This document shows positions 10,653 to 31,708 of a DNA stretch of 33,238 nucleotides, piece after piece (the first letter of the stretch is position 1; each line of letters starts with the position of its first letter). Source of the DNA: Myxococcota bacterium (GTDB taxonomy: Bacteria; Myxococcota_A; Polyangia; Palsa-1104; JAEUJZ01); assembly GCA_025057315.1 (NCBI GenBank), contig JANWXW010000113.1, positions 1-33,238 on the forward strand, given 5' to 3'. Below the pieces are notes generated by a model. It searched no databases and was not told where the DNA came from. It worked only from the letters and a program-made list of their open reading frames with translations. The translations under genes and the position numbers were made by a program.

Positions 10653-10692
10653 TGTAAAAAAATTGCGCAATCTGTAAAAAAATTGCGCAATA
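10653..10692. promoter_or_regulatory. two tandem 20-bp repeats (TGTAAAAAAATTGCGCAATc/a), each with a perfect 10-bp palindrome ATTGCGCAAT; candidate enhancer-binding-protein upstream activating site
   Basis: 19/20 identity. Palindrome centres are exactly 20 bp apart. AT-rich island in a ~70% GC genome. An inverted partial copy (CGCAATTTTTT) lies at 10601-10611. Located ~190 bp upstream of the pilin gene. Confidence 0.5.
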
Positions 10693-23694: not shown

Positions 23695-23943
23695 ATGGGG
23701 CTCGACATCCGCTTGCCCATCGGCCTGATGTTTTGTCTTATGGGGCCGTTGCTGCTCGGGACCGGCCTGGCAGAAGGCAGCCCGCTCAGCGCGCGCACCG
23801 GGGGCGCCATGCTGCTCTTTGGGGGGGTGATGCTGGCGCTGGGGCTGCGCGCTCAGCTTAGCGCCTCCTCATCGGAGGCCTCGTCCTCGTCGGACGCTTC
23901 CGCCTCGTCCTCTTCATCCTCCTCTTCAAACGAGATCACATAG
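23695..23943 (+). CDS. possible small two-TM membrane protein following the symporter (uncertain)
   Basis: TAGGAGG 4 nt before ATG 23695. Two hydrophobic helices. The Ser-rich tail is antisense to the acidic tail of the convergent FHA gene (91-nt overlap), so the 3' part may be non-coding. Confidence 0.3.
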   Translation: MGLDIRLPIGLMFCLMGPLLLGTGLAEGSPLSARTGGAMLLFGGVMLALGLRAQLSASSSEASSSSDASASSSSSSSSNEIT

Positions 23944-24209
23944 TCGCCAATGTAGAGCTTGTCGTCCACGTCCAGCGGCCGCGGCTCCTCGACGCGAAAG
24001 CCGTTGACGAAGGTGCCACAGGTGCTCTTAAGGTCTTCGATCCAGTACTGTTCGTCTTTGACAAACAGGCGCGCGTGCCGCTTGGACACGATGCCGTCGG
24101 GCAGCACGATGTCGTTGGCGCTGCTCAGGCGGCCAATGTTGATCTCGTCCTTTTCGATCTCCAGGCGCCGCTGCTTGCCTTCCTTATGGACGATCCGGAA
24201 GACGGGCAC
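23853..24209 (-). CDS. FHA (forkhead-associated) domain protein with acidic C-terminal tail
   Basis: FHA core (…INIGRLSSANDIVLPDGIVSKRHARLFVKDEQYWIEDLKSTCGTFVNG…). Start reassigned to GTG 24209, which has AGGAGG plus a 6-nt spacer; the ATG at 24236 lacks a Shine-Dalgarno site. C-terminal EEDEEDEAEASDEDEASDEE. Confidence 0.75.
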   Translation of the reverse strand: MPVFRIVHKEGKQRRLEIEKDEINIGRLSSANDIVLPDGIVSKRHARLFVKDEQYWIEDLKSTCGTFVNGFRVEEPRPLDVDDKLYIGDYVISFEEEDEEDEAEASDEDEASDEEALS

Positions 24210-24341
24210 GATAGACCTCCTGCCGCATCGTACCATGGCCTGCCCGAGCCTTCACAGAGGGGGCGTGAAGCGGGATTCACAGGGAGCCCCCGCGCTCAGG
24301 CGACGGTTTCGTTGGCATGCGGGCTGCAATATCCGCCTGCC

Positions 24342-25187
24342 ATGAGAAGCCCGCTGCTTGCCATGGTGATTGCAACGCTGTCCTACATTGCCTCTGGAGC
24401 GGAAGGGGGGCTGCCGCTGGCCCGGGCCAGCGATGCCGCGACCCAGCTTCCCCGGCACCGTCTGGTGGGCGTGATCCTGTCCACCTCGCAGGTCCTGCTC
24501 TGGGACGAGGAAACCGGCGAGTACCAGCTGCGCCGCGTGGGCGATGAGATCATGGGCGGGCGCATCGTGGCCCTGGAGGAGGACATGATCCTGCTGGAGC
24601 GGGGCGAGGAGCGGGAGGAGATCGGCATCATGCCGCCGCCCCAGCGGCGGATCGCAGCGCGGAGGTCGCGGCGTCTGCCGCCGATGATCGTCCAGGTGGC
24701 CCCGGTGGACCAGGAGCCGTCTGCCGCGACGCTGGCGCCGCAGGCGCCGGCCCAGCCAGTGCCCGGCCCGATGCCGCTGCCGGCCCAGCCAGTGCCCGGC
24801 CCGATGCCGCTGCCGATCCAGCCGCAGAGCCCACCCCCCGTGCCCCCTGCGCCACCGGCTGCGGCACCCCAGCTGGGCCCCGTGCAGGCCCTGTCGCGGG
24901 CCCAGCTGGAGCGGACCCTGGAGGCCCTCGGCGGATCGGAGCCACCGGTGGCGCTGGCCCCCCATCCCAGCGGGGGCTACCGCATCCTGGCGGTGCAGGC
25001 CGGCAGCCTGGCCGAGGGGATGGGCCTGCGCCCGGGCGACATCGTGCTGCGCATCGACGGCCGGCCCATCCACTCCGTCGGCGACGCCGTTTCCGCCTAC
25101 GCCTGGCTGCGGCTGACCGACCAGTTCACCATGGACGTGCTCCGCGACGGCCGCTTGCTGACTCTTCGCTACGTGTTCCAGCCGTAG
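24342..25187 (+). CDS. PDZ-domain protein with N-terminal signal/anchor and proline-rich linker (GspC/PilP-like architecture)
   Basis: MRSPLLAMVIATLSYIASGA hydrophobic N-terminus. Pro-rich repeats (QPVPGPMPLP x2). C-terminal PDZ (…GYRILAVQAGSLAEGMGLRPGDIVLRIDGRPIHSVGDA…). Divergent from the FHA gene. Confidence 0.65.
   Translation: MRSPLLAMVIATLSYIASGAEGGLPLARASDAATQLPRHRLVGVILSTSQVLLWDEETGEYQLRRVGDEIMGGRIVALEEDMILLERGEEREEIGIMPPPQRRIAARRSRRLPPMIVQVAPVDQEPSAATLAPQAPAQPVPGPMPLPAQPVPGPMPLPIQPQSPPPVPPAPPAAAPQLGPVQALSRAQLERTLEALGGSEPPVALAPHPSGGYRILAVQAGSLAEGMGLRPGDIVLRIDGRPIHSVGDAVSAYAWLRLTDQFTMDVLRDGRLLTLRYVFQP
24749..24814. repeat. perfect 33-bp tandem duplication (GGCCCAGCCAGTGCCCGGCCCGATGCCGCTGCC x2) inside the PDZ-protein gene
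   Basis: Read directly from the sequence; encodes AQPVPGPMPLP twice. Confidence 0.9.
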
Positions 25188-25708: not shown

Positions 25709-25838
25709 ACTCCCGTGCGGCGCCCTGGTGCAGCCGGTCAGTTGCGCCGGTACATCGTGACCACGCAGGTGCGGACCCCGTGCGGCGCCCTGGTGCAGCC
25801 AATCAGTCGCGCCGGTACATCGTGACCACGCAGGCCCC
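25709..25838. repeat. ~65-bp tandem duplication covering the last ~30 nt of the thiolase gene plus ~33 nt of downstream sequence
   Basis: CCCGTGCGGCGCCCTGGTGCAGCC occurs at 25712-25735 and 25777-25800. (G/A)TCAGT(T/C)GCGCCGGTACATCGTGACCACGCAGG occurs at 25736-25769 and 25801-25834. The distal copy encodes …VVTMYRRN* versus the genuine …VVTMYRRD*. Confidence 0.85.
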
Positions 25839-26981
25839 GCCCAGGCCGAGGTTGTGCTGCAGCGCCACCCGGGCCCCCTCCACCTGCCGCTTGTCCGCGG
25901 TGCCACGGAGCTGCCACACCAGCTCGGCGCACTGGGCCAGCCCGGTTGCGCCCAGCGGGTGACCCTTGGACAGCAGACCCCCGGACGGGTTGATCACGTA
26001 CTTGCCGCCGTAGGTGTTGTCCCCGTCCCAGATGAACTTCTCGGCACCGCCCTCCGGGCACAACCCCAGGGCCTCGTAGCTGAGCAGCTCGTTGGTGGTG
26101 AAGCAGTCGTGCAGCTCGACCACATCCACGTCCTCGGGCCCCAGGCCGGCGCGCTCGTAGACCTGCCGGGCGGCGCTCTTGGCCATGTCGTAGCCGACCA
26201 TCTTGATCATGCTTTTTTCTTGGAAGCTGGACGGAGAGTCGGTGGTCATGACCTGCGCCGCGATGTAGATGGGTGCAGACAGGCCGCGCCGGTTGGCAAA
26301 GTCGCTGGAGCACAGCACGGCCGCCGCCGCGCCGCAGGTGGGCGGGCAGCACTGGTAGCGCGTCAGCGGGTCGAAGACTTCGTCGGAGGCCAGTATCTCC
26401 TCGACGGTCAGCGGCTGGTTGAAGAGAGCATAGGGATTGTTGGCCGCATGGCGGCGGGCCTTCTCGGCAATCTTGGCGAAGGTCTCGCGTCGCGTGCCGT
26501 AGCGCCAGCGGTACTCGCGGCCGGCGCCACCGAACATCTGTGCCGTCGGCGGGGCCTGGGTGAAACCCTGCACCTCGTTCATGAGGTTGGCGTGCCACTC
26601 GACCGGGCTGGCGCGATCGGTCCACTTGGAGCCGAGCGCGCCCTTTTCCATCTTCTCGAAGCCCAGGGCGAGCACGCACTCGGCACCGCTCTCGATGGCC
26701 TGACGGGCGAGCATGAGCGCAGTGGAGCCAGTGGCGCAGTTGTTGTTGACGTTGAAGATCGGGATGCCGCGCAGGCCAAGCTCGTAGACTGCGCGCTGTC
26801 CGCAGGTGCTGTCACCGAAGACGTAGCCGGCATAGACCTGCTCTACGTCCTCGAACCCTACGCCAGCATCGCTCAGGGCCGCGCGGGCGGCCTGGCTGGC
26901 CATGATGTGATAGTCATCGCTCTGGCCCGGCTTCTGGAACTTGGTCATGCCGACGCCAATGACATGGGTCCGTCGTGCCAT
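25803..26981 (-). CDS. SCPx-type thiolase (nonspecific lipid-transfer protein thiolase domain; 3-ketoacyl-CoA thiolase)
   Basis: Very close collinear similarity to the thiolase domain of eukaryotic SCPx/SCP2: [138 protein letters not shown] Shine-Dalgarno. 21 nt downstream of the MFE-2 gene. Confidence 0.9.
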
Positions 26982-27002
26982 CGTGCACCTCTTGCGGGCA
27001 GC

Positions 27003-29984
27003 TTAGCCGAGGTTTTTGAGGAATCCCAGCCGGTGCGCCAGCAGGACATCACCGTCGACGCGCAGGCGACCACGCTGGAACAGGTCACGCGCAACCTGGG
27101 GGTCCCGCACAAGCTGCGCCAGGTCCGCATCGGCCAGGGTGAAGACCGCTGCAGCCTGCGGGTCTCGCCCGGGTCGGACGCCGACCGAACCAGGCCGCAG
27201 GTCCACGAGGTAGCTGGCCTCTGGGCTCTGGATGTGGAACTGCAACAACGCCCCGACCTCGGCGGCAAGCTGCGGGTTGCTGGCCAGCCGCTCGGAGAGC
27301 GCGCGAAAGATCGCCGGGGCGCACCCCTGGGCTGGCTGTCCCGCGGGCGGCGCCTGGACCGAGCCCTGCGCCGCTCCGCTTCCCTGCTCCGCCTGCAGCG
27401 CCCGGGCTGCGGCCTCGCGATCGATGTGCTTGAGGAAGTCCAGCTTCTGCGCGGCCAGCAGGTTGCCCGTGATCTTGAGCCGGCCGGAAAAGTACAGCTT
27501 CTGCGGGTCGGCCTGCCCGGTGGCCATGGCGATGAAGTCCGCCTCGCTCAGCGTGAGCGTCACATCGGGCGCCTCGGCCGTGCCCGGGGCGCAGCGGCCG
27601 GTTCCGTGCTTCACATCGAGTACCCAGGCGCTGTCTGGCTCGGTCAGCTTCCACTGGAACACGGTCTGGATGCGGGCCGGCAGCTCGGGGTGAGCCTGAA
27701 GGTAGTGGGCGATGGCCCGGAAGATCGCCTCGCTGCGCAGCCCGGATGCCGGGGGTGAGGCTGTCGCAGGCCCTGTGCCGCGCCGAGCCTGGATGACGCG
27801 CAGAGCTGCCTGGGGGTCGATCTTTTTGAGGAACTCCAGCTTCTGCGCAGCCAGCAGGTTGCCGGTGATTTTCAGCTTGCCGCCAAAGTAGAGCTTCTGC
27901 GGGTCGGCCTGTCCGGTGGTCATGGCGATGAAGTCCGCCTCGCTCAGCGTGAGCGTCACGTCCGGGGCGGCGGCCGCGCCCGGCGTGACCGAGCCGCTGC
28001 CGTTTTTCAGATCCAGGGTCCAGGTGCTGTCCGGATCCTTGATTTGCCACTGGAATACCGCCTGCACCTTGCTCACCAGATCGGGGTTGCGCTGCAAGTG
28101 ATCGGCGATGACGGCGAAGACGTCAGCGCTCTGCAGCTCGGTGGGAGCAGACGGGGCCGGCCCTGGGGCCTCCTCCTTGGGCGGCTCGCGGTGCAGCTCC
28201 ACCACGGCATTGCTCAGCACGACCCGGTCGCGCTCTTTGACCTTGCAGCGCAACAGGATGCGCCCTGGCTCCTCCTGCCACATCTCGGTAACGAGCGTCT
28301 CGCCCGGGAATACGCTGTCGGCAAACCGGACCCTGATGCTTCTGAGCAGACGCGGGTCGCCGCCGGCGAAGCTGCGCAGCACGTGCCGGGTGACAAAGCC
28401 AAAGGTGCACAGCCCGTGTAGGATGGGCCGCTCGAAGCCGAAGCCGCGGGCAAAGGCAGGGTCGGCGTGTAGCGGGTTCCAGTCGCCCGAGAGGCGGTAG
28501 AGCAGCGCCTGGTCGGGCCGCGTCTTCTCCTCGACGATGGCATCGGGCGGCCGGGAGGGCAGGGGAACCTCCACCGACGGACCTCGCTCTCCACCCCAGC
28601 CGCCGGCCCCGCGCACAACGGTGGTCACTTCATTGTAGCAGAGCTCGCGGCCGCTCTCGTCGGTGGTGGTGATGGCCGTGACCACCAGGGCGTTTTTGCC
28701 CTTGTCGAAGATGTCCTTGATCTTCATGCGGTGCACGAGCTTTGCCTGCGTCGGCAGCGGTCGCCGGATCTCGGTGTACTGTTCACCGTGGAGCACGCGG
28801 TCTAGCCCATAGTGCAGGCCGGGCGCCTGCTTGCCCTGCTGCGCGGCGCGCACCAGAGCACCCACGGCCTGCGCAGCCATGAAGCTGGGCAGGGGATAGA
28901 AGCCGCTGGCGTTTAGCTCATACACCAGACGCAGGTCCTTCTCGTCGAGCGGATCGGCACCGGCACCGACCCCAAGAGCGTACAGCGCCAGGTCGCGTTC
29001 GGTGTAGCTGGACTCCAGCGGGGGGAACTCGTAGCCGAGCGCCTCGTCGACGTCAATGAACTCGTTGCCCACCTTGCCGCGGGCAGAGGCGAGGTTGTCG
29101 AGCACCGGCTGCATCGAGGCCGTGATGTCCGACGGGTGGGTGGTGCGATCAAAGCTGGTGATGACGGCGAAGCGATCGCGCACCCCCTCGGGCGTAATGG
29201 GACGGGACAGCTTGAAGGTGTAGCCTGCCGTGCGCTCCCAGCGCAGCTTGCTGAAGAAGCCACCGCCGACTTCGAACAGACCGCCCGTTTCGGTGCACGA
29301 CTCGTGGCACAGCCAGACCACCAGGGGCGAGACATACTCTGGCTTCAGGGCCTCGACGAGGTCTTTGGGTAGGACCGTTTCGGTCAGGCGCGAACCGGCA
29401 ATGGGCGCGATGGTATTGACCAGGATGCCACGCTTGCGGCCCTCTATGGCCAGGGTATTGGCCAGGCCGACGAGGCCCATCTTGGCGGCGCTGTAGTTGG
29501 CCTGGCCGAAGTTACCATACAGGCCCGCTGCCGAGGTGGTAAAGAGGATGCGACCATAGCCTGCCTCGCGCATCGGGTTCCAGGCAGCGGCCGTGACGCG
29601 GTAGGAGCCGAGCAGGTGCACGCGGTAGATGAGATCCCAGTCCTGCTCGGTCATCTTCTGGAAAGAGGTGTCGCGCAGGATGCCGGCATTGTTGATGACG
29701 ATGTCGATGCGGCCAAAGTGGTCCAGCGCGCACTGGACAATCTTGGCCCCATCCTCGACGGAGTCATAGTTGGGCACGGCCTCACCACCCAAGGCCTTGA
29801 TCTCGGCGACGACGCGGTCGGCGGCTGCAGTGGACTGGCCCTCGCCATGGCGAGAGCCACCCAAGTCGTTGACCACCACGCGGGCGCCGCGGGCACCCAG
29901 CAGCAGCGCGTGGGCGCGGCCTAGGCCGCCGCCCGCCCCGGTGACGATGGCGACGCGTCCGTCGAAACGAAGTTCGTTGGCCAT
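27003..29984 (-). CDS. peroxisomal-type multifunctional enzyme 2 (MFE-2/HSD17B4-like): SDR (3R)-hydroxyacyl-CoA dehydrogenase + hydratase-2 (MaoC hot-dog) + three tandem SCP2 sterol-carrier domains
   Basis: Start at ATG 29984 (AAGGAAGGA Shine-Dalgarno). N-terminus MANELRFDGRVAIVTGAGGGLGRAHALLLGARGARVVVNDLGG matches human MFE-2 ([29 protein letters not shown]…VVVNDLGG). Hydratase-2 motif YRLSGDWNPLHADPAFA. SCP2 domains 1 and 2 are near-identical (…PDVTLTLSEADFIAM(T/A)TGQADPQKLYF(G/S)G(K/R)LKITGNLLAAQKL(E/D)FLK…); a third, diverged SCP2 lies at the C-terminus. The ORF track's 30140 start adds 52 unsupported residues. Confidence 0.9.
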   Translation of the reverse strand: MANELRFDGRVAIVTGAGGGLGRAHALLLGARGARVVVNDLGGSRHGEGQSTAAADRVVAEIKALGGEAVPNYDSVEDGAKIVQCALDHFGRIDIVINNAGILRDTSFQKMTEQDWDLIYRVHLLGSYRVTAAAWNPMREAGYGRILFTTSAAGLYGNFGQANYSAAKMGLVGLANTLAIEGRKRGILVNTIAPIAGSRLTETVLPKDLVEALKPEYVSPLVVWLCHESCTETGGLFEVGGGFFSKLRWERTAGYTFKLSRPITPEGVRDRFAVITSFDRTTHPSDITASMQPVLDNLASARGKVGNEFIDVDEALGYEFPPLESSYTERDLALYALGVGAGADPLDEKDLRLVYELNASGFYPLPSFMAAQAVGALVRAAQQGKQAPGLHYGLDRVLHGEQYTEIRRPLPTQAKLVHRMKIKDIFDKGKNALVVTAITTTDESGRELCYNEVTTVVRGAGGWGGERGPSVEVPLPSRPPDAIVEEKTRPDQALLYRLSGDWNPLHADPAFARGFGFERPILHGLCTFGFVTRHVLRSFAGGDPRLLRSIRVRFADSVFPGETLVTEMWQEEPGRILLRCKVKERDRVVLSNAVVELHREPPKEEAPGPAPSAPTELQSADVFAVIADHLQRNPDLVSKVQAVFQWQIKDPDSTWTLDLKNGSGSVTPGAAAAPDVTLTLSEADFIAMTTGQADPQKLYFGGKLKITGNLLAAQKLEFLKKIDPQAALRVIQARRGTGPATASPPASGLRSEAIFRAIAHYLQAHPELPARIQTVFQWKLTEPDSAWVLDVKHGTGRCAPGTAEAPDVTLTLSEADFIAMATGQADPQKLYFSGRLKITGNLLAAQKLDFLKHIDREAAARALQAEQGSGAAQGSVQAPPAGQPAQGCAPAIFRALSERLASNPQLAAEVGALLQFHIQSPEASYLVDLRPGSVGVRPGRDPQAAAVFTLADADLAQLVRDPQVARDLFQRGRLRVDGDVLLAHRLGFLKNLG
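27380..28120. repeat. intragenic ~400-bp tandem duplication (two SCP2-domain-encoding segments, ~90% nt identity) within the MFE-2 gene
   Basis: e.g. 27420-27570 vs 27820-27970 share long identical runs (gaagtccgcctcgctcagcgtgagcgtcac…). Produces near-identical shadow ORFs on the + strand. Confidence 0.8.
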
Positions 29985-30155
29985 GGAAATCCTTCCTTGT
30001 TCCTTGAGGAGTCTGGCTGGATGAGGCCGTGCGGCGCACCAGCCCGCACGAGGGGCCGAGTATGAGGGCAGGCCCCATGGGCCGTCAAGGGCAGGGGATG
30101 CGATTCGGTGGGCGGCTGCTACTATTAGAAGGTCCGCCACTTCGCTGGAGGATCC

Positions 30156-30737
30156 ATGACGCTCCGAGTTCGCTTCGTCCTAGCTTGCACCCTGCTGGCG
30201 CAGGTGCTGCTCAAAAGCCCGTCGCTGGAGGCATCGGTGCTCCTGCCACTGAGCACGGCCCAGTTGGTCGCCCGAGCCGAGCGGATTGTGGTGGGCACGG
30301 TGGTGGGCCAGGAGAGTCACTGGGTGGATGGCGGGTCGGCCATTGTCACAGATGTGCGCATCCGCGTCACCCGCGCAGTCCTGGGGGCGCAAGAAGGGGA
30401 GATCATCACCGTGCGGCGTCTGGGTGGCACAGTGGGTGAGATCGGCATGCGCGTCTTTGGCGAGGCCAGCTTCCGGGACGGCGAGGAGGTGCTGCTGTTT
30501 GCCGAGCGCCGCGGCGGCGCCTACTACAGCGTGGGCATGACGCAGGGGACGCTGCACATCACGCAGCAGGGGGGACGGCGCATGGCCCAGATGGCCTTGG
30601 GCGGCGCCGAGATCGTGGGGCGGAGTGGGGTGGCGCCGGTTGTCCGTCCGCTGGAGGAGGTCCTCGATGAGGTGCGCCGTGCCCTGGCAGCGCGCCGTCC
30701 GGAGCCGGCGCAGGGCCGGTCGGAGCAGACGCGATGA
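30156..30737 (+). CDS. secreted hypothetical protein co-transcribed with the metalloprotease (possible partner/propeptide-like factor)
   Basis: GGAGG before ATG 30156. Signal peptide MTLRVRFVLACTLLAQVLLKSPSLEA. Stop overlaps the next start (ATGA at 30734). Confidence 0.6.
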   Translation: MTLRVRFVLACTLLAQVLLKSPSLEASVLLPLSTAQLVARAERIVVGTVVGQESHWVDGGSAIVTDVRIRVTRAVLGAQEGEIITVRRLGGTVGEIGMRVFGEASFRDGEEVLLFAERRGGAYYSVGMTQGTLHITQQGGRRMAQMALGGAEIVGRSGVAPVVRPLEEVLDEVRRALAARRPEPAQGRSEQTR

Positions 30738-31708
30738 GGCCGCTGCAGAGCTTCTCTGGGCTGCTGGCCCTGGTGGGCCTGATTGCGCATGGGGGAGCGG
30801 CACAGGCCTGGGTGCGCTCGCGGACCAACGGCTGCCACCCGGTCTACTGGTCGCAGAGCTGCATCTACCTCCAGCCCGACGGCGAGCTGACCAAGGACCT
30901 GCCCGCCGACCAGGTGCAGCGCATCATCCAGAGATCCATAGCCCAGTGGCAGGACCGCATCGGCGGCAGCTTTCTCCGCCTCATCTACGTCCCGCCGGAC
31001 GGGCCGCGTGAGGCGCGATTTGACCGCCAGCCGACCATCAAGTTCCGCACCGGACGCTGGTGCCGCCCTGGCGACTGCCAAGGCGACCGAGAAAGCTGCT
31101 ATGACGCCAGCGCCGCAGCGATCACGACCGTGTTCTTCGTCAACAAGCCCGACAATGAGCAGGAGGATGGCCTCATCCTCGATGCGGACATCGAGCTGAA
31201 CAGCGTCCACAACCAGTTCTATGATGCCGACCAGCTTCCTCCCCGGGGGGACGGGCGCACCCTGACCGATCTAGAAAACACGCTGGTGCATGAGCTGGGG
31301 CATCTGATGGGCTTGGAGCACACCTGCCGGTCGGCGGGAGACGGCATGCCGGACTGCACGGTCGACCACCTAGGCCAGCGACCGCCGTTGTGCAGCACGG
31401 TGCTAGCCGGCATGGATCGGGACCCGCGCCTGCGCGAGATTGCCGAGACCACGATGTTTGCCACGGCCCAGCCGCGTGAGACCAAGAAGCGCACCCCCGA
31501 GGCCGACGACGTCGCGGCCATTGTGGCCATCTACCCGGCAGCGCGCGATCCGCGCTCCTGCGAACGGCCCCGTCCAAGAGATCAATGTGGCGGCGGTGGC
31601 TGCGCGCTGGCACCGCATGGGCGCACGGCGGCCGCGGCTCCCCTGCTGCTGCTCGGGGCGATCCTGCTGTGCATGCGCCAGCGGCGCTGGAGCGGCCGCA
31701 CATGCTAG
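30734..31708 (+). CDS. secreted metzincin-type zinc metalloprotease (matrixin-like HExxHxxGxxH) with MYXO-CTERM-like tail
   Basis: Signal peptide MRPLQSFSGLLALVGLIAHGGAAQA. Zinc motif HELGHLMGLEHT. C-terminus …CGGGGCALAPHG…APLLLLGAILLCMRQRRW (Cys-Gly motif, hydrophobic helix, basic cluster). Confidence 0.8.
   Translation: MRPLQSFSGLLALVGLIAHGGAAQAWVRSRTNGCHPVYWSQSCIYLQPDGELTKDLPADQVQRIIQRSIAQWQDRIGGSFLRLIYVPPDGPREARFDRQPTIKFRTGRWCRPGDCQGDRESCYDASAAAITTVFFVNKPDNEQEDGLILDADIELNSVHNQFYDADQLPPRGDGRTLTDLENTLVHELGHLMGLEHTCRSAGDGMPDCTVDHLGQRPPLCSTVLAGMDRDPRLREIAETTMFATAQPRETKKRTPEADDVAAIVAIYPAARDPRSCERPRPRDQCGGGGCALAPHGRTAAAAPLLLLGAILLCMRQRRWSGRTC

Follow-up and report, generated by a model that had tools for sequence, protein, structure and literature searches.

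The window analyzed here is a stretch of 33,238 nucleotides (nt) from a Myxococcota bacterium (assembly GCA_025057315.1, contig JANWXW010000113.1). On its minus strand it carries a gene for a predicted enzyme of beta-oxidation that resembles the peroxisomal multifunctional enzyme MFE-2, followed by a gene for a thiolase of the SCPx type. The MFE-2-like protein ends in a tail of three SCP2 domains, and the first two of these (the internal domains, SCP2-1 and SCP2-2) are encoded by a direct repeat. The original prediction, made from the DNA letters, held the repeat to be a recent duplication that arose in situ. We find that the duplication is almost certainly old, and that its products belong to a family in which the internal SCP2 domains evolve in concert.

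An MFE-2-like gene with a tail of SCP2 domains

Pfam recognizes adh_short, MFE-2_hydrat-2_N, MaoC_dehydratas and, three times, SCP2 in the protein, which bears out the initial description of the gene as MFE-2-like with three SCP2 domains. The closest solved structure is that of Drosophila MFE-2 (3oml, E 6e-159, residues 4-599). In the short-chain dehydrogenase/reductase (SDR) domain the usual motifs are readable in translation: the Gly-rich NAD motif as TGAGGGLG, then NNAG, and the catalytic YxxxK as YSAAK. The domain matches the dehydrogenase domains of rat and human HSD17B4 (1gz6, E 8e-125, and 1zbq, E 8e-122, respectively). The hydratase-2 motif YRLSGDWNPLHADPAFA is also present in the translation, and 1s9c matches the hydratase-2 region at E 3e-70. 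Judged by these sequence features, the two parts expected of an MFE-2, the SDR domain and the double hot-dog hydratase-2, are both in place. The gene would thus encode a bacterial MFE-2-like enzyme of beta-oxidation, with a bacterial variant of the layout and not the animal architecture.

The minus-strand open reading frame (ORF) around the gene covers 27003-30140, because the mechanical ORF in the ORF list reaches upstream to a GTG at 30140. The ATG at 29984 is likely the true start, since the 993-residue form is identical to a database protein (P0001) and the homologs begin at the same residue. Two long plus-strand ORFs, 25854-27758 and 27232-27693, were set aside as antisense ORFs of the kind that GC-rich DNA commonly shows; homology is confined to the minus strand.

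The limits of the SCP2 domains (Table 1) were set by a profile built on the three copies. Three stretches match the Pfam model PF02036, with a score of 201.6 bits (gathering cut-off 21.3), which places the domains in the SCP2 family. AlphaFold models the tail as three alpha/beta domains, each folded with a local confidence (pLDDT) above 90, and two disordered linkers between them. The global confidence is low (pTM 0.41), so that the model predicts no fixed arrangement between the domains. A Foldseek search with the SCP2 domains returned 1ikt, 6z1w and 1c44 at E ~1e-9 and target TM-scores of 0.79-0.85. In structure the domains come closest to human MFE-2 SCP-2L (1ikt), at 44% identity and a root-mean-square deviation of 1.6 Å.

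Table 1. Positions in the window of the MFE-2-like gene, its predicted domains and linkers, and the thiolase gene
Feature	Positions	Strand	Remarks
MFE-2-like gene	27003..29984	minus	993 residues, starts MANELRF; predicted order SDR dehydrogenase, hydratase-2, three SCP2
SDR domain, (3R)-hydroxyacyl-CoA dehydrogenase type	29403..29957	minus	Pfam adh_short, E 4e-37, ORF residues 62-246
Hydratase-2 region (MFE-2_hydrat-2_N and MaoC hot-dog)	28266..29009	minus	Pfam PF22622, E 5e-34; PF01575, E 4e-28
SCP2-1, first internal SCP2 (112 residues)	27801..28136	minus	Pfam SCP2; AlphaFold pLDDT >90
Core of SCP2-1	27816..27986	minus	Domain residues 51-107, last strands and C-terminal helices; probable conversion tract
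Linker SCP2-1/SCP2-2, disordered, Ala/Pro/Gly-rich	27744..27773	minus	AlphaFold pLDDT <50, model residues 143-152; sequence RRGTGPATASPPASG
SCP2-2, second internal SCP2 (112 residues)	27405..27740	minus	396 nt downstream of SCP2-1, in frame
Core of SCP2-2	27420..27590	minus	Partner of the SCP2-1 core; probable conversion tract
Linker SCP2-2/SCP2-3, disordered	27333..27377	minus	AlphaFold pLDDT <50, model residues 275-289
SCP2-3, terminal SCP2	27006..27326	minus	Pfam SCP2; separate, older type
SCPx-type thiolase gene	25803..26981	minus	21 nt downstream of the MFE-2-like gene; Pfam Thiolase_N, Thiolase_C_1

The internal SCP2 pair in the window and across the family

A self dot-plot of 27000-28200 shows a single diagonal, at an offset of 396. 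The repeat finder aligns 27352-27651 with 27748-28047 at 74% identity over 300 nt, as an ungapped, in-frame, direct repeat with a period of 396 nt. The predicted direct repeat is thus real. The ~90% identity over ~400 bp that had been claimed for it did not hold up: the value is 72-74%, and only a core of ~170 nt (Table 1) reaches ~86%. Over the 372 nt that can be aligned (28136-27765 vs. 27740-27369), SCP2-1 and SCP2-2 are identical at 72.3% of nucleotides and 64.5% of residues, and their first, second and third codon positions agree at 75, 81 and 60%, respectively. The chance level, taken from SCP2-1 against unrelated in-frame parts of the gene, lies far lower, at 0.31 ± 0.02 (maximum 0.39).

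The identity is unevenly spread. It is ~60-65% over the first 150 nt of the domain, rises to 85-97% over the ~170 nt of the core (0.78-0.88 in bins of 60 nt, 0.97 in the best sliding window of 60 nt), and is again ~60% near the linker. Compared by halves, the N-terminal half has an identity of 0.63 in nucleotides and 0.46 in protein, and the core 0.86 in both. The long perfect runs that had been attributed to the ~400-bp segments shrink to 39, 20, 14 and 14 nt. Tandem Repeats Finder, run on 26000-29500, did not report the 396-nt unit, the identity being too low. As predicted, the third domain is much more diverged: SCP2-3 shares 48-49% of nucleotides and 28-29% of residues with SCP2-1 and SCP2-2.

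For comparison across species we took the 120 best homologs, which are 57-68% identical to the query (its own database copy apart) and come mostly from Polyangia, including Minicystis, Polyangium, Chondromyces and Sandaracinaceae. Three SCP2 domains are present in 110 of them, four in 7 and two in 3, so that the copy number does vary, as had been supposed. The duplicate internal domain is found in 117/120, hence the comparison with orthologs does not bear out a recent origin; the prevalence of the three-SCP2 layout itself indicates that the layout is old. More distant homologs from Desulfobacterales have one SCP2 per protein. The last SCP2 is always of a separate type: across the homologs, terminal domains are 51% alike mutually and 31-33% identical to internal domains.

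Among the homologs with four SCP2 domains (P0078, P0079, P0058 and P0005), the added internal domain is always near one particular other copy. Numbering the internal domains d1, d2 and d3, d1 and d3 are 0.97 identical in P0078, with d2 at 0.78; d2 and d3 are 0.89 identical in P0058; and in P0005 all three are 0.92-0.96 alike. This closeness to one particular copy suggests that the extra unit was gained recently and independently in different lineages.

The internal domains resemble each other more within a protein than between proteins. At the protein level, identity between d1 and d2 of the same protein averages 0.735 (73.5%; range 54-100%), against between-protein means of 0.60 for d1-d1, 0.63 for d2-d2 and 0.60 for d1-d2. 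Of 5995 protein pairs, 2898 have both within-protein values above all four cross identities. Copy-for-copy correspondence (d1-d1 above d1-d2) appears only where identity between the enzymatic parts exceeds 80%. In 109 comparisons of the window protein with others, its d1-d2 identity (0.66) is higher than each of the four cross identities 92 times. The nearest protein-level neighbors of the window domains are uninformative, as the best cross-species values (0.68-0.71) are about the same as this within-protein value.

DNA was available from nine usable full-length loci among the matches listed in a search of genome contigs, most of which had the SDR domain alone, and from chosen homologs found by look-up of the exact protein. 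The internal copies are 96% identical in nucleotides in Polyangium sp. 6x1 and 94% in a four-SCP2 protein (L088). In Chondromyces crocatus and C. apiculatus the copies are 0.973 and 0.985 identical within each genome and 0.906-0.917 across the two species, and all 22 informative sites of this quartet are concerted, none being orthologous or crossed. The internal SCP2 domains thus evolve in concert across the family, and do so at the level of DNA. Near-identical copies within genomes, together with the 2- and 4-copy variants, point to recurrent homologous exchange between the units. The suspicion that such repeats are prone to recombination was therefore sound for the family at large. It is genomes with near-identical copies, such as those of Chondromyces, that the original description of a recent repeat fits, and not the window, which has one of the more diverged pairs of the family (71 of the 110 three-SCP2 homologs have a more similar one).

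The extreme of the series is a locus on contig CAZICM010000048.1 of GCA_964537685.1 (L085, 2951-3661), whose internal SCP2 domains are 100% identical over 112 residues in protein and nucleotides alike. The G+C content at third codon positions (GC3) of that gene is unusually low, 0.66. The perfect identity reflects either very recent homogenization or an effect of assembly of a metagenome-assembled genome (MAG).

In the window the two parts of the repeat give different signals in a quartet with L083 (protein P0002), the nearest relative with DNA. In the N-terminal half (residues 1-50), 13 sites are orthologous, 3 concerted and 5 crossed; in the core (residues 51-107), none is orthologous, 18 are concerted and 3 crossed. 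The difference in orthologous vs. concerted sites between core and N-terminal half is significant (Fisher's exact test, p = 6e-7). Since the N-terminal halves pair copy-for-copy with those of L083, both copies predate the split of the two lineages, and these halves would by then already have differed. Synonymous divergence (dS, by the NG86 method) is 0.75 between the N-terminal halves, 0.39 between the cores and 0.53-0.58 between the window genome and L083. Within the core, synonymous choices are shared by the copies of one genome and differ between the genomes: AGC/AGC vs. TCG/TCG for Ser, TTT/TTT vs. TTC/TTC for Phe and CTG/CTG vs. CTT/CTT for Leu. SCP2-1 and SCP2-2 also share a run of 13 identical codons, for which P is ~0.001 given the codon usage of this gene.

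Origin of the internal pair

We favor the view that an old, Polyangia-wide tandem duplication has been homogenized repeatedly throughout the family, and that in the window lineage its core was homogenized anew; we hold this account as a whole with good confidence. The internal pair would stem from that duplication and would have been kept across Polyangia-type myxobacteria. Units of ~400 nt would recombine for as long as they remain similar, both by gene conversion and by unequal exchange, the latter also yielding the 2- and 4-copy forms. Because homogenization recurs, the paralogs within one genome often look young. In the window lineage, the last homogenization over the full length would have preceded the split from the nearest sampled relative. 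After the split the N-terminal halves would have diverged to saturation; a segment that has become too dissimilar to pair homologously would escape conversion. The core, which keeps enough identity to recombine because the protein constraint is strongest there, would later have undergone renewed homogenization, separately in the two lineages, through a short tract of conversion. Mosaic divergence of tandem paralogs through gene conversion is an outcome described before (PMC2720389, PMC3924837, bioRxiv 10.1101/2025.10.29.685298).

A recent tandem duplication, in situ in this genome or in its immediate ancestors, is in our judgment very unlikely. It would explain readily why SCP2-1 and SCP2-2 are far closer mutually than to SCP2-3, why the core holds a perfect run of 39 nt and why the pair exceeds the cross identities in 92/109 comparisons. 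These features are outweighed by the modest nucleotide identity (72-74%, with third positions at 60%), by the dS of 0.39-0.75, and by the recurrence of the three-SCP2 layout in 110/120 homologs down to ~57% overall identity. That conserved layout and the copy-for-copy pairing of the N-terminal halves with L083 contradict the claimed recent, in situ origin, and 71/110 homologs have more similar pairs. An artefact of assembly, in which a repeat was mis-joined, expanded or collapsed, is harder still to credit, even though the sequence comes from a MAG contig and mis-assembly of tandem repeats can occur. The caution that the repeat may mislead assembly carries little force here, since the copies differ at 28% of positions, which is beyond confusion by an assembler, and share no exact run above 39 nt; on the sequence, collapse or expansion appears unlikely. 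The reading frame is also intact and the three domains fold at pLDDT >90 in the AlphaFold model. Moreover, the 110 homologs have the same copy number, among them the one encoded in the complete Chondromyces crocatus genome (CP012159), and two contigs carry a record of the identical protein.

The alternative that engages the core itself is that no recombination has taken place since the ancient duplication. The similarity of the cores would then be due to purifying selection and GC3-biased codons, and the residues shared within a genome to parallel adaptation, such as to a ligand specific to the lineage. Several observations speak for such a course and weigh against ours. Across the family no segment of the domain is better conserved than the core (distant proteins are 0.68 identical in the core vs. 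0.51 in the N-terminal half), so that purifying selection explains part of its identity. Where residues are shared, identity of the codons is 0.78 within the window and 0.6-0.83 against other species; the latter is high because of the strong GC3 bias common to all these genomes, and we dropped this measure as a direct sign of conversion, confounded as it is by the shared bias. The strictly synonymous excess of concerted sites in the core (5 vs. 2.2 expected) is not significant by itself (P = 0.07). The mosaic test, finally, hangs on one fairly distant relative, the enzymatic part of L083 being 75% identical to that of the window. Selection alone, however, does not predict 18 concerted vs. 0 orthologous sites in the core when the N-terminal half has 3 vs. 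13, nor a dS between the core paralogs (0.39) below that between species (0.53-0.58). Other members of the family, besides, show homogenization of DNA unmistakably: the copies are 94-100% identical in nucleotides in some genomes, and the sites of Chondromyces stand at 22:0:0. We therefore regard an origin by selection alone as improbable. The mosaic of the core probably reflects conversion at the DNA level instead of parallel selection, and homogenization of the core by gene conversion is fairly likely.

Neighborhood, function and known systems

The succession of an MFE-2-like gene and an SCPx-type thiolase gene is conserved in 8/8 relatives looked up by protein, and is found in the source contig as well. 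Across the stop codon of the thiolase gene lies a tandem direct repeat of 65 nt (25712-25834, 1.9 copies, 94% match): the last nine codons (CVVTMYRRD*) and ~35 nt beyond them recur directly downstream as CVVTMYRRN* with the same tail. The window has other short repeats. The ORF of a PDZ-domain protein (24075-25187, plus strand) contains, at 24746-24823, an in-frame tandem repeat of 33 nt (2.4 copies, 95% match) that encodes the Pro-rich motif PAQPVPGPMPL. The minus-strand ORF 12705-13976 includes a tandem repeat of 27 nt at 13636-13730 (3.5 copies, 82% match). Two copies of a perfect 20-nt AT-rich direct repeat, TGTAAAAAAATTGCGCAATC, occupy 10653-10691 and might be a regulatory or binding site; the MFE-2 and thiolase genes have 67% G+C. 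Neighboring genes encode a small FHA-domain protein whose tail is acidic and rich in Asp/Glu (23853-24236) and a matrixin-like (M10) metallopeptidase with an HELGH motif (30734-31708).

The SCP2 domains would serve as equivalent arms that bind lipids or acyl-CoA, held by their flexible linkers to the dehydrogenase-hydratase part, which would work together with the thiolase encoded next to it. By analogy with tandem carrier domains, having several alike may raise the local capture of substrate. We put forward, as a tentative idea only, that the Polyangia-type enzyme has a dosage-type design: one to three interchangeable internal SCP2 domains and a distinct terminal one, with recombination and selection for several equivalent lipid-binding arms keeping the copies similar and varying their number. 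The window lineage could then be decaying toward two specialized domains.

For the window itself the analysis serves mainly to correct the first description: this is an old repeat of ~73% identity within a conserved layout, and one stable enough to be assembled. The family offers a clean natural series, with copies from 100% down to 54% identical, for the study of how intragenic domain repeats escape gene conversion, and raises the question of why an enzyme of beta-oxidation benefits from a tail of two to four SCP2 domains. The kind of phenomenon is known: it is concerted evolution of intragenic tandem domains, here in a conserved bacterial MFE-2-like gene. A literature search on tandem SCP2 domains in bacterial or myxobacterial MFE-2 brought up nothing specific, and no paper was found on the multi-SCP2 tail, its concerted evolution, or a dosage-type design for SCP2 or any MFE-2. 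The family-level pattern may therefore merit a short note.

Three known systems invite comparison. In the E2 component of E. coli pyruvate dehydrogenase, three lipoyl domains stand in tandem. Polyunsaturated fatty acid (PUFA) synthases carry tandem acyl carrier proteins (ACPs), which are near-identical carrier domains on flexible linkers (PMC5067506). The SCP2 tail shares with such systems small ligand-carrying or ligand-binding domains arrayed in tandem on Ala/Pro-rich linkers, a copy number that varies by species (two to four SCP2) and copies that are often nearly identical. Unlike ACPs and lipoyl domains, SCP2 binds lipids non-covalently and without a prosthetic group. The likeness in dosage is one of analogy only.

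With eukaryotic peroxisomal MFE-2 (also HSD17B4 or DBP; 3oml, 1gz6, 1s9c, 1ikt) the protein shares the order of SDR, hydratase-2 and SCP2, and the gene is followed by one for an SCPx-type thiolase, which comes next in the peroxisomal pathway. Animal MFE-2, however, has a single SCP-2-like domain and ends in a peroxisomal targeting signal (PTS1), whereas the window protein is bacterial, carries three SCP2 domains on disordered linkers and terminates in ...FLKNLG, without a peroxisomal tripeptide of the AKL/SKL type. The closeness to the animal enzyme is nonetheless striking (E 6e-159 to 3oml; SCP2 44% identical to human 1ikt), and may bear on the shared ancestry of bacterial and eukaryotic beta-oxidation genes.

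Finally, the internal SCP2 domains behave much as tandem paralogs that evolve in concert (PMC2720389, PMC3924837, bioRxiv 10.1101/2025.10.29.685298): likeness within a genome exceeds likeness between orthologs, and homogenized tracts lie beside diverged flanks. They differ from concerted tandem genes in that the units here are domains within one bacterial gene, and in that in the window the process has largely stopped outside the core of ~170 nt.

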